A stretch of 64,000 bases of DNA from Candidatus Helarchaeota archaeon. Its GTDB lineage: Archaea > Asgardarchaeota > Lokiarchaeia > Helarchaeales > RDOG01. The DNA is taken from positions 249,715-313,714 of the forward strand of contig JAHPZH010000006.1 of the NCBI GenBank assembly GCA_019058315.1. The letters run 5' to 3'. Under the pieces are notes generated by a model. The model saw only the letters and a program-made list of their open reading frames with translations, was not told where the DNA came from and did not search any database. Within the stretch, counting starts at the first letter, position 1, and the number at the start of each line of letters is the position of its first letter. Positions 57,901 through 62,785 of this stretch are shown here, piece by piece. Made by a program: the position numbers and the translations under genes.

Positions 57901-60900
57901 AGATTTTGAATTAGAAGTGGACAAAGACCCTAGATCTGGAATTTATCGCTTTTTTGTTTCCAAAACTAAAAGACGCTATTTTGCCGATGCTGTAGGAAGA
58001 ATAACGTTGTTTGGAGGGATTATTAGCAATGAAGCAGAGAAAGTTATTGAAGATCATAAAATAGAAGTCATAGAACATTCACAAGAAGAAATTAAAAGAT
58101 CAGAACAACAAGAAAAAATTGAAAATGAGCTTCGAGAAAGAGTCTGGAAACGAAGGAGAAAAGGGGAACTCATAGAAGTAGCAAGACAAATGGTTTATGC
58201 AAAAATCATGTCGAATGTAATCTATACGATAAAGTTAGGGAGACAAATTTTAAAAGAATGGAAAAGGGAATCACTTTTAGAAATGTATGAAGAGGAACTA
58301 AAATATAAACAACTAGATCGAATTGTCCTCACTTATTTATTCTATGACCCTGATATTAAATTGACATGGAGAGATAGGGAAGAGATCATTGATATTTTAA
58401 ATAAATTTCGTTCCGCGGAGGGAAATGCAGAGATTGCAGCCTGGGAATCAGTAAAAAGAGTATTATCTAGAAAATATCAATTCATCGGACGTCAATCACA
58501 AAGGTATGCTCAGACAATTTTATATTATGGTGCAAAAGCATACGATAAATATAATGCATGTCTTAATTATCTCTACCAATTGCTCCAAGAAAAAGCAGGA
58601 AAAGCCTTAGAAAAGGCAGGATTTAATAGATTTTTTCCTGGTCCAGGAATACTCCATTATCGTATAAAGAAAAGAGAGAGGCATAGAAAGTATAAGAATT
58701 TTTATAGCATTATGACCAAAAAAAATAAGGAATTACTTTTTGATTTCATGGACTCCTACCGACCAACTATTAGATATTATTTTGGGGAATTTCTAAGAAA
58801 TGATGAATTGGATGATAGTAAAGATATTTGGTGGGGACTTGATGAATTAAGGAGAAGAGTATATTATGTCTCAGAAACAGGTAAAAACAAGCTAAAAATT
58901 CTGTTTGAGGAGATATGTTCAAGGAAATTCTATTATAAGAATGAAAGCAAGACAATATTAGAAATAATGGAAACAGAAGCTCAAAATCTTGCTGATTATC
59001 TAAAATCGGAAGAATCATTAGAATATGTCCCTTTTTGTGCCTTTGAAACGAGAGAAGATGCACAATGGGTATTTCATATAGTTCAAACAATCGATAAAAT
59101 CCTTGGTAATGGTAAAATACCGGAATATATGGATTTAAAACCTGAAGAAACCCCTAAAAAGGATATTTCTATTGAACCGGAAATAGTTCATTCTACCTCA
59201 ATTCTTGATCCTAGAGTAAATATTTGTATAGTCCCCCATGTTGATTTTGATGGTTATAAATCTGCTTTAAATCTAACTTTCATGCATTCAAGAAATAAAT
59301 CCATATCAATCTTTCCTGCGACTAATTCATATCAATTTAATTATATTGAAACAGTTTTAGAAAAAAAAGTCTCAAGGGCTTTAAAGCATGATCAGAGAAA
59401 CATCATATACATTGCAGATTTTCCATTTTTTCATTCTCGAATGCAGTTTTTAAATAGACTACATAAAAGATTTCAAACTTATGGTTTAAAAGTGGAAATA
59501 ATTTGGTTCGATCATCATCCAGCTACTGAATCCGAAGAACAATTAAGTTTGAGAAAAATTTTCATGGAGCGTCGTGGATGGAAATTTTATTATTCCCGCA
59601 AAGATGATACACAAGATATAATAACAAGGTATATGAATCAAATTATGGAAAAACACAAATCTTTTAAGGAATCAGATAGGAAAGAATCAATGGATTTAAA
59701 TAATTGGTTGAAAATCACACGTGAGATAATTATATTTGAAGAGGGATATTTGTTTTACAGGTATTATTTATATCATTTATTTAAAAAAGGAGAAAAAATT
59801 AATTTAGCATCATTTTTCAGAGATTTATATGGTTATAAATTACCAAGGAAGCGTAAGGGGCTTAGAAAATATCTAGATAGGCAAAAAAAATTAATTAAAC
59901 ATCCTGAAAAACTCCTTTATTATTGGGAATTTGGATGGACTTGTGATCACTTCTATTTTGCAGCCTTCATTTTTAGAAAAGATTTCTCAATATCCAAACT
60001 GGATGAGCTTATTCATAATTTGGGAGAGGATCCTAATGGGATAGATATGATTATTTGCTGCTGGGATAATAAGACGATTAGCATAAGAGCATCTAAAAGG
60101 AGCGGAGTAAATCTTCACAATATTTTTAATAAAAATATGGGTCACGAAACCGCAATAGGAATTTTAAATCCTATGTGTGAGTATCTGGGAGTGGATGAAT
60201 GGGAAGACGAATATCATTACATAAATATTGGACATTATATTACCTTTGATGAGGTTTTAGTTAGAATTAAAATTAGTAGTTTATTCGATTATGATAAACA
60301 ATATCAAGAAAGGTTTGCAGCAACCAAATTGAATATAAAAGCATATGATGATGATTTTTTCACCACATTAAAGTTTCAAAGACCTTCAAAATTGTGTTTT
60401 CCAACTTATCTTAAAGAGTTTGATAAATTATTACAACCAAAAACAGAAATTAGGTTTCAAGCTCCCGACAAGATTAGAACAAATACTGAAATTAAGATTA
60501 AGGAAGATTTAGAAGGAATTACATTTGCGTATGTGTATAAAGCAGATAAAAGATACAATTTGGATATCGTATCCGATATTCCAGTGGGGGAAGAGATAAG
60601 ATTAACTTTAAATAATAAAGTAGAATTGGGAATCGATCTAAATAAAGATGATTTTATCATAATTAAAGGCAGTGAAAAAATTCCAAAAAGAGGGGGTTAT
60701 TATTGCGGTTCTTATAACTACATGCTGTGCCATAAGAACGAAGAACAATACTTGCTAGATTTAATCTGCTATCTAATGCTTGCAGCACAAGATAAAAACG
60801 GATTAAACTCTGAAAATGTAGTTTGTATAAATGCAAATAAATTTCCTTTTTATCAGAATTTATTAAATATTGCAAAGAAAAATAAAGATTTTAACTTAGA

Positions 60901-62785: not shown

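Follow-up and report, generated by a model that had tools for sequence, protein, structure and literature searches.

A 64,000-nucleotide stretch of the genome of a Candidatus Helarchaeota archaeon (GenBank assembly GCA_019058315.1, contig JAHPZH010000006.1, positions 249,715–313,714; hereafter the window) holds a single gene of 2,600 codons that joins a helicase, a Cas1 domain and a long C-terminal half, and the question that this locus raises is what such a C-terminal half does for a Cas1 protein. An earlier note on this DNA read it as a DHH nuclease fused to Cas1, with a DHHA1-like module present in three copies around a degenerate RadA-like domain, and likened it to the Cas4 and DnaQ partners that trim prespacers. 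Following up that proposal computationally, we find that the last 1,190 residues probably serve a CRISPR-independent helicase–Cas1 protein as an arm for DNA-end processing and scaffolding, in which one catalytic centre would be followed by a basic RadA core and one or two DHHA1-derived domains without chemistry. The gene and its parts are as follows (aa, amino-acid positions in the encoded protein, P0001).

54983–62785, + strand: fusion gene for P0001 (2,600 aa; helicase–Cas1–DHH–RadA-like), a single open frame of 2,600 codons
aa 55–221 of P0001: DEAD (Pfam)
aa 292–396 of P0001: Helicase_C (Pfam)
57962–58663, + strand: Cas1 domain, aa 994–1227 (Pfam Cas_Cas1 PF01867, E 4.3e-9, 36.4 bits against a cut-off of 22.3; TIGR00287, E 3.7e-10)
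59213–59902, + strand: predicted DHH catalytic lobe with helical insert, aa 1411–1640 (motifs, AlphaFold2 (AF2) model, Foldseek, VIA-align)
59900–60277, + strand: predicted DHHA1 copy 1, aa 1640–1765 (C-terminal lobe of the DHH model; relatives' alignments)
60278–60649, + strand: strand-rich linker or insert, aa 1766–1889 (no Pfam match)
60650–61282, + strand: ATPase-dead RadA/Rad51-like core, aa 1890–2100 (profile against the PDB; TIGR02237)
61400–61768, + strand: predicted DHHA1-like copy 2, aa 2140–2262 (hhalign, model, VIA-align, and the ratio of non-synonymous to synonymous substitution rates, dN/dS)
61769–62419, + strand: helical region ending in a winged-helix-like unit, aa 2263–2479 (model secondary structure; low confidence)
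62420–62782, + strand: predicted DHHA1-like copy 3, aa 2480–2600 (hhalign, VIA-align)

The frame is unbroken despite the roughly 30% G+C content of the genome, and DEAD and Helicase_C together form a superfamily 2 (SF2) helicase (aa 55–396, Pfam). The Pfam Cas_Cas1 match within the same polypeptide bears out the claimed fusion to Cas1, and the three DHHA1-like segments sit where they had been placed, with slightly wider bounds.

A predicted two-lobed DHH/DHHA1 enzyme with intact motifs

The DHH lobe and copy 1 together (unit 1) are predicted to be a two-lobed DHH/DHHA1 phosphoesterase of the RecJ/GAN/NrnA kind. Motif I reads H1419-x-D1421-x-D1423-G (aa 1419–1424; nucleotides (nt) 59237–59254), motif II A1478-D1479 (nt 59414–59419) and motif III W1508-x-D1510-H1511-H1512 (within nt 59504–59521), and H1419, D1421, D1423, G1424, A1478, D1479, W1508, D1510, H1511 and H1512 are invariant across 12 relatives. 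A D-D-T triplet after the fifth strand (aa 1541–1543) is a candidate for the motif IV Asp, its column being Asp in most but not all relatives. Copy 1 keeps both S1700-I-R1702 (nt 60080–60088) and G1720-H1721 (nt 60140–60145); the G-H pair is retained by most relatives, and two distant ones read GGH-x-GAGA, which we take to be close to the canonical DHHA1 motif.

The AF2 model of unit 1 (predicted local distance difference test, pLDDT, 79; predicted template modelling score, pTM, 0.75) had 49 Foldseek matches in the PDB at E ≤ 1e-3, and all of those listed are DHH-family proteins aligned over about 350 columns (best E 3.5e-9, probability 1.00); at the top stand an uncharacterised H. pylori DHH protein, NrnA homologues, DhhP, Rv2837c, PAP phosphatase, TM1595, GdpP and RecJ. 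VIA-align gave PF0399 a Z-score of 17.3 over 310 aa, followed by PAP phosphatase (15.6), RecJ-Cdc45 (14.6), D. radiodurans RecJ (14.4), human Cdc45 (13.6) and NrnA-type proteins (11–12). In this model, copy 1 makes up the C-terminal lobe, which aligns with the DHHA1 lobes of RecJ, GAN, NrnA and PF0399 and is predicted to pack on the DHH lobe through the usual connection. With motifs invariant in 12 relatives and Z-scores of up to 17.3, the DHH nuclease of the earlier note stands at the level of fold and motifs.

Unit 1 shares with the cores of RecJ, RecJ-Cdc45 (GAN) and PF0399 the two-lobed DHH plus DHHA1 build (about 280–310 residues, Z 13.5–17.3), motifs I–III, the DHHA1 Arg and the Gly-His. 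It differs from them in falling below Pfam cut-offs, in showing no OB domain after the DHHA1 lobe and in lying inside a helicase–Cas1 polypeptide with extra DHHA1-like domains behind it; to our knowledge, no such embedded multi-DHHA1 arrangement occurs in these families. NrnA, DhhP, Rv2837c (CnpB) and GdpP are the best named Foldseek matches of unit 1 (E 3.5e-7 to 1e-5), with a similarly compact two-lobe size, and their C-terminal lobes are the structural matches of copies 2 and 3. These four, however, are stand-alone or sensor-linked proteins acting on short oligonucleotides or signalling nucleotides, whereas the fusion provides a DNA-enzyme setting and two of its three DHHA1-type domains are without the His of GGGH and the Arg.

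The strand-rich insert behind unit 1 (aa 1766–1889) is present in P0001 and its paralogue P0003 and mostly absent from the relatives P0004 and P0012. By analogy with bacterial RecJ, it might be an OB-like domain.

Three paralogous DHHA1 modules

The three segments proposed as internal paralogues are significantly related by BLASTP, by shuffle controls and by profile comparison. BLASTP aligned copies 2 and 3 at E 2e-13 (31% identity), copies 1 and 2 at E 4e-4 and copies 1 and 3 at E 0.009. Relative to shuffled sequences, these pairs reached z-scores of 17.4 (2–3), 5.6 (1–2) and 2.7 (1–3), the real score being attained by 0, 1 and 20 of 1,000 shuffles, respectively, and 12 other 125-aa segments of P0001 all scored 38 or less, like the shuffles. 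Profiles built from relatives, one per module, were compared by hhalign, which related copy 1 to copy 2 with 93% probability (E 2.7e-7), copy 1 to copy 3 with 91% (E 9.7e-7) and copy 2 to copy 3 with 98.7% (E 3.9e-16). In 400 genomes, the copy-2/3 profile also matched copy 1 of three proteins outside the profile (E 2e-5 to 4e-4). A joint alignment of 17 modules has a sole invariant column, the Gly before the His of the DHHA1 'GGGH' loop. The module tree splits copy 1 from copies 2 and 3 with support of 100/99 and recovers a copy 2 clade (88/95).

A predicted DHHA1 fold without the chemistry in copies 2 and 3

Only copy 1 keeps the SIR and GH motifs, just as had been read from the letters. Copy 2 has I-Y (aa 2205–2206) for I-R and G-G-E for G-H, and copy 3 has I-Y (aa 2542–2543) and D-G-E, so that Tyr replaces Arg and Glu replaces His in both. 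Because the substrate-contacting Arg and His are gone from domains that hhalign relates to DHHA1, copies 2 and 3 are likely to be non-catalytic, in agreement with the original suggestion.

Both copies are DHHA1-derived and are predicted to keep the DHHA1 fold. In a model of aa 2100–2600 (mean pLDDT 64.7, about 70–86 over both copies), the order of their strands and helices is that of copy 1 in its own model. For copy 3, VIA-align returned PPX1 (Z 8.9, 111 aa, root-mean-square deviation (rmsd) 3.5), DhhP (8.3) and pyrophosphatase (PPase, 8.1), aligned over 101–111 of about 117 residues. Family II pyrophosphatases scored 7–8 and Rv2837c 7.7, and the matches also include RecJ2, Cdc45 and, at 6.2, the C-Ala domain of alanyl-tRNA synthetase; its top 24 rows were all C-terminal lobes of DHH-family proteins. 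For copy 2, the GdpP DHHA1 domain (Z 5.7) and SH1221 (5.5) were found. In an ESM-Atlas shape search, all eight rows were clusters with the DHHA1 family. Structure prediction, which the earlier note had named as a check, points in this way to a DHHA1 fold for both copies, and their modest Z-scores gain weight from the uniformity of the matches and from the sequence link to copy 1. Neither of the outcomes that the earlier note named as refuting it, repeats without significant alignment or a fold other than DHHA1, is what we see. No Foldseek match of the copy-2/3 model reached E ≤ 1e-3, DHH-family proteins appearing there in local rows (E 0.006–0.1), and Pfam searches with sub-segments returned nothing for copies 1–3, the linker or the helical region.

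Copy 2 is neutral to acidic, with an isoelectric point (pI) of 5.2–8.8, and three of the four copy-3 domains fall at 4.5–5.5; most copy-1 domains are basic, although that of P0001 has a pI of 5.2. The lost Arg and His and the non-basic charge speak against simple nucleic-acid binding, the part of the earlier proposal for copies 2 and 3 that found no support, and suggest that these copies serve as structural elements or dock a partner.

Copy 2 is under purifying selection, and the dead parts of the protein are as constrained as the live ones: between the relatives P0012 and P0013, a pair without copy 3, dN/dS was 0.12 for the DHH lobe, 0.18 for copy 1, 0.20 for the RadA-like core and 0.19 for copy 2. 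The possibility that copy 2 and the RadA-like core are decaying relics was rejected on these values of about 0.2 for both and on the intact 2,600-codon frame.

An alternative would keep copies 2 and 3 on nucleic acid, as non-catalytic binding modules that hold single-stranded DNA or RNA (the TnpB guide RNA) near the nuclease or the integrase. The model for this is C-Ala, which binds tRNA, dimerises alanyl-tRNA synthetase and has the DHHA1 fold without a DHH partner or catalysis. It matches copy 3 over 100 of 111 residues (3g98, Z 6.2), alanyl-tRNA synthetase clusters appear in the Atlas search, and the rest of the protein consists of DNA enzymes. However, C-Ala has no detectable sequence relation to the copies, the missing Arg and His are the DHHA1 residues that contact nucleotide phosphate, and neither copy is basic: three of four proteins have an acidic copy 3, copy 2 ranges from neutral to acidic, and it is the RadA core that is consistently basic. 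We regard this alternative as possible but doubtful.

An ATPase-dead RadA-like core

Between copies 1 and 2, aa 1890–2100 match RecA-type cores at E-values from 7.9e-8 to 1e-3. A ten-sequence profile compared with the PDB found RadA (2bke, E 7.9e-8) and Rad51 (E 2.8e-7) over profile positions 11–182, the ATPase core; the RadB family TIGR02237 matched weakly (E 2.4e-4), and Pfam Rad51 matched six of the ten members, all below the cut-off. The Walker A place reads C-H-K-N-E-E (nt 60728–60745) against the consensus GxxxxGK[ST], and the Walker B place L-I-I-V-N (nt 61001–61015), with Asp changed to Asn, which together indicate an ATPase-dead core. A degenerate RadA-like domain had been proposed at this place, and the RadA match and the missing Walker A support it. 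The core is basic in every protein (pI 9.0–9.9). It was also considered as a degenerate DHH lobe, and this was rejected because its profile matches RadA and Rad51, not DHH proteins.

Like RadB and the Rad51 paralogues with degenerate ATPase motifs, the region has a RecA-type core across the ATPase domain. It differs from them in having no Walker A and Asn for the Walker B Asp, in being internal to a giant protein and in always being followed (where present) or preceded by a DHHA1-type domain. In another Asgard genome (G304), a fusion like P0011 lies tail-to-tail with a gene (L013 2034–2618, − strand) that by eye seems to encode a RadA/RadB-type protein, with Y-I-D-T-E-G, the usual strand, in place; the dead recombinase may have a possibly live one beside it there.

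A rare family and stepwise growth of the C-terminal arm

Nine matches were found among 1.84 billion representative proteins, and a set of 5.8 billion contained one full-length relative, which is a paralogue in the same genome (P0003). The DHH unit occurs in six of 400 Asgard genomes (four strong and two weak, the latter at E of about 3–4e-6 in frames of about 325 aa) and the copy 2/3 modules in four of the 400, strongly only in the present genome. With the family so rare, this genome is the main source of material, and it holds at least six copies or remnants of the fusion.

P0001: 2,600 aa; full architecture, with copies 2 and 3
P0003, paralogue on contig C7: 2,766 aa; architecture as P0001
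P0012: 2,147 aa from ATG, 2,160-aa stop-to-stop frame; ends right after copy 2
P0013: cut by the contig end; P0012 type
P0014, remnant on contig C2: 225 aa; the gene's last part only
Copy on contig C1, L011 7417–11736, − strand: 1,439–1,474 aa; helicase and Cas1 only, without the DHH, RadA-like and DHHA1-like regions

In other genomes, P0005, P0006, P0011 and the L013 fusion end after the RadA-like core. P0015 has the RadA-like core with one DHHA1-like copy only. Copy 3, together with the helical and winged-helix stretch, is found in P0001 and two relatives (P0003 and P0004). The tree split and the architectures of these relatives point to stepwise duplication, in which the DHHA1 lobe was duplicated once, with loss of its catalytic residues, and then again together with the helical and winged-helix stretch. 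The C-terminal arm would thus have grown by accretion, from proteins ending at the RadA core to those with copy 2 and then copy 3.

The winged helix of this stretch lies at about aa 2389–2454 (nt 62147–62344; pLDDT 73–86), behind helices with a pLDDT of about 50. Weak matches of aa 2263–2479 were to PCI-domain and UFL1/DDRGK1 winged helices (Z 5.5–6.7, some with rmsd above 16); the PCI proteins are COP9 signalosome and proteasome-lid subunits, and these matches are of low confidence. In P0003 and P0004, the helical part that separates copies 2 and 3 contains internal repeats.

Three further observations concern the relatives. P0007 (1,042 aa) combines a DHHA1-like domain that has no DHH lobe with a dead RadA-like core, leucine-rich repeats (LRRs) and two SSB-type OB folds. 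The C1 copy is followed by a gene for a small LRR protein, and its divergent neighbour encodes a HEAT-repeat protein, not TnpB. P0003, the closest paralogue, has no adjacent tnpB, and a LAGLIDADG-type gene (L008 14595–15620, − strand) adjoins its start.

Cas1 fusions beside tnpB in a genome with no detected Cas2 or CRISPR array

The genome of this Asgard archaeon is 94% complete and contains five Cas1 matches, all of them helicase–Cas1 fusions. Cas2 (PF09827) was not found in it by a search whose controls respond, and neither the window nor a whole-genome k-mer scan yielded a CRISPR array, although such arrays are often left unassembled. A different gene accompanies the fusion in the window:

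53158–54633, − strand: tnpB, divergent from the fusion gene (Pfam OrfB_IS605, E 9.8e-20; Cas12f1-like TNB, E 6.2e-12)

A divergent tnpB stands head-to-head with the fusion gene at three loci, the window and two paralogous ones. The two paralogous loci share an 8.1-kb block of tnpB and fusion gene (81% identity) that runs from 112 nt past the tnpB stop to the contig end, and the TnpB of the window is 25% identical to that of this unit. A third copy of the unit is a deletion remnant (L012 13452–14600; G000 contig C2, near its end), where about 475 nt near the tnpB 5' end abut the last 225 fusion codons and about 6.1 kb of the intact copy (L009 6583–12718) are missing. The 10-mer ATGAACTACC lies at the tnpB-distal edge of three loci (window 53146–53155, L009 about 5158 and L010 about 11921) and has a single occurrence in the window, against 0.1 expected; either the TnpB guide-RNA scaffold or the element itself may end with it. 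Beyond tnpB in the window lies a polB gene; casposons carry a PolB of their own together with Cas1, and are bounded by terminal inverted repeats and a target-site duplication.

Just 3' of the fusion gene, at 62831–62994, about 124–165 nt are 87–94% identical to contig C2 383294–383451 (L012), which directly follows the stop of the deletion remnant, a member of a different subfamily. Both downstream stretches end just before a gene for a large repeat protein (with TPR repeats in the window). The shared stretch could mark where an element ends or where insertion is favoured, or it could be a promoter common to both places.

Asgard aCas1–TnpB loci have been described before and taken for transposons, with aCas1 proposed as the transposase, in the portion of Altae-Tran et al. 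(2023, PMC10691335) available to us. Those loci ('Cas1H-Asgard-1/-2') resemble the present ones in having an Asgard Cas1 beside tnpB, no CRISPR array and multiple copies; they differ in that the same portion of that paper makes no mention of a helicase, a DHH unit, a dead RadA core or repeated DHHA1 domains. We found no description of the helicase–Cas1–DHH architecture in the literature searched, a search outside which Makarova et al. 2020 (CRISPR J) falls.

Candidate roles of the C-terminal arm

As the most economical reading, we infer that the arm belongs to a mobile element and provides its Cas1-type integrase with trimmed DNA ends, and with this a nuclease activity, its substrate and polarity, and a role in moving the tnpB-linked unit. 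The helicase would unwind DNA, the DHH unit would trim single-stranded ends to leave the 3'-OH ends that Cas1-type integrases use, and the dead RadA core would hold the DNA. The extra DHHA1-like domains would act as structural or partner-docking modules rather than as substrate-binding lobes.

Several results weigh against this account. At their curated thresholds, the sequence libraries all miss the domains: Pfam DHH (PF01368) matches three of 12 relatives at E 0.03–0.06 and 14–15 bits, against a cut-off of 28.1, and Pfam DHHA1 (PF02272) matches none of the 12. In the PDB, the unit-1 profile had only 6mtz (E 0.32) as its best match, the pooled DHHA1-like profile returned nothing but NleB rows, which are spurious, and phmmer with aa 1400–2600 gave no matches. 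The fold assigned to copies 2 and 3 comes from the model with a mean pLDDT of 64.7, their Z-scores of 5.7–8.9 lie in the range that VIA-align calls common, and their proposed role is argued negatively, from missing residues and charge. Copy 3 lies outside the dN/dS measurement, since the P0012/P0013 pair is without it, and its decay is argued against only by the unbroken frame and by its occurrence in P0001, P0003 and P0004. Foldseek ranks the NrnA- and DhhP-type small-substrate enzymes above RecJ, so that DNA is no more than a putative substrate. Lastly, the inferred ends (L009 and the window) showed neither terminal inverted repeats nor target duplications, the best scores there lying below the shuffle means, and mobility and the link to integration are therefore hypothetical.

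The Foldseek ranking would suit a unit 1 that is a small-substrate phosphodiesterase, acting on nanoRNA, pAp or a cyclic or linear dinucleotide and regulating or cleaning up after the other domains. Its best matches are the H. pylori DHH protein, NrnA, DhhP, Rv2837c, PAP phosphatase and TM1595, it has their compact two-lobe size, and it shows no OB domain. VIA-align, however, puts PF0399 (17.3) and PAP phosphatase (15.6) first and the cores of RecJ, RecJ-Cdc45 and archaeal RecJ2 (13.5–14.6) above NrnA-type ones (11–12), and the unit is fused to a DNA-directed helicase, an integrase and a Rad51-like core, which together make this reading unlikely.

A more speculative idea, to which we give little credence, is that the dead RadA core and the DHHA1-derived domains form a non-catalytic assembly module that bridges or spaces Cas1 dimers in the manner of Cas2, or docks onto TnpB or the host replisome as Cdc45 and GAN do in the CMG helicase. 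If true, three recruitments of a nuclease lobe would have supplied building material for a self-contained integration machine linked to an RNA-guided nuclease.

Trimming of prespacers for CRISPR adaptation, with the DHH unit as an analogue of Cas4 or DnaQ fused to Cas1, is the parallel drawn in the earlier note. Cas1 is in the same polypeptide, and exonucleases fused to or partnering Cas1 do occur in CRISPR adaptation. Yet with no Cas2 match in a 94%-complete genome, no array (subject to the assembly limit given above), all five Cas1 matches being fusions and a multi-copy gene paired with tnpB at three loci, the analogy lacks its context here and appears very improbable. Least probable of all is that copies 2 and 3 swap with copy 1 on the DHH lobe as alternative substrate-binding lobes that change specificity: the three copies have one fold in common, the linkers between them are modelled with low confidence and are probably flexible, and in the DHH family the second lobe (DHHA1 or DHHA2) sets specificity, but both copies are missing the catalytically useful second-lobe residues and copy 1 is joined to the DHH lobe as usual and predicted to be packed on it.

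Significance of the domain map

Cas1 integrases outside CRISPR are candidate ancestors of CRISPR adaptation and candidate DNA-insertion tools. The TnpB-linked helicase–Cas1 giants of Asgard archaea were already catalogued, with a putative function; what is new is a domain-level map of the C-terminal half and the stepwise duplication of DHHA1. The layout is unusual in joining a predicted live nuclease centre, a dead recombinase core and duplicated DHHA1 domains that have lost catalytic residues, copy 2 being under selection all the same, and the map yields concrete constructs and point mutants for biochemistry. If the models are correct, copies 2 and 3 would be an example of the DHHA1 fold reused as a non-enzymatic module, a use that, as far as we know, is otherwise seen mainly in alanyl-tRNA synthetase.

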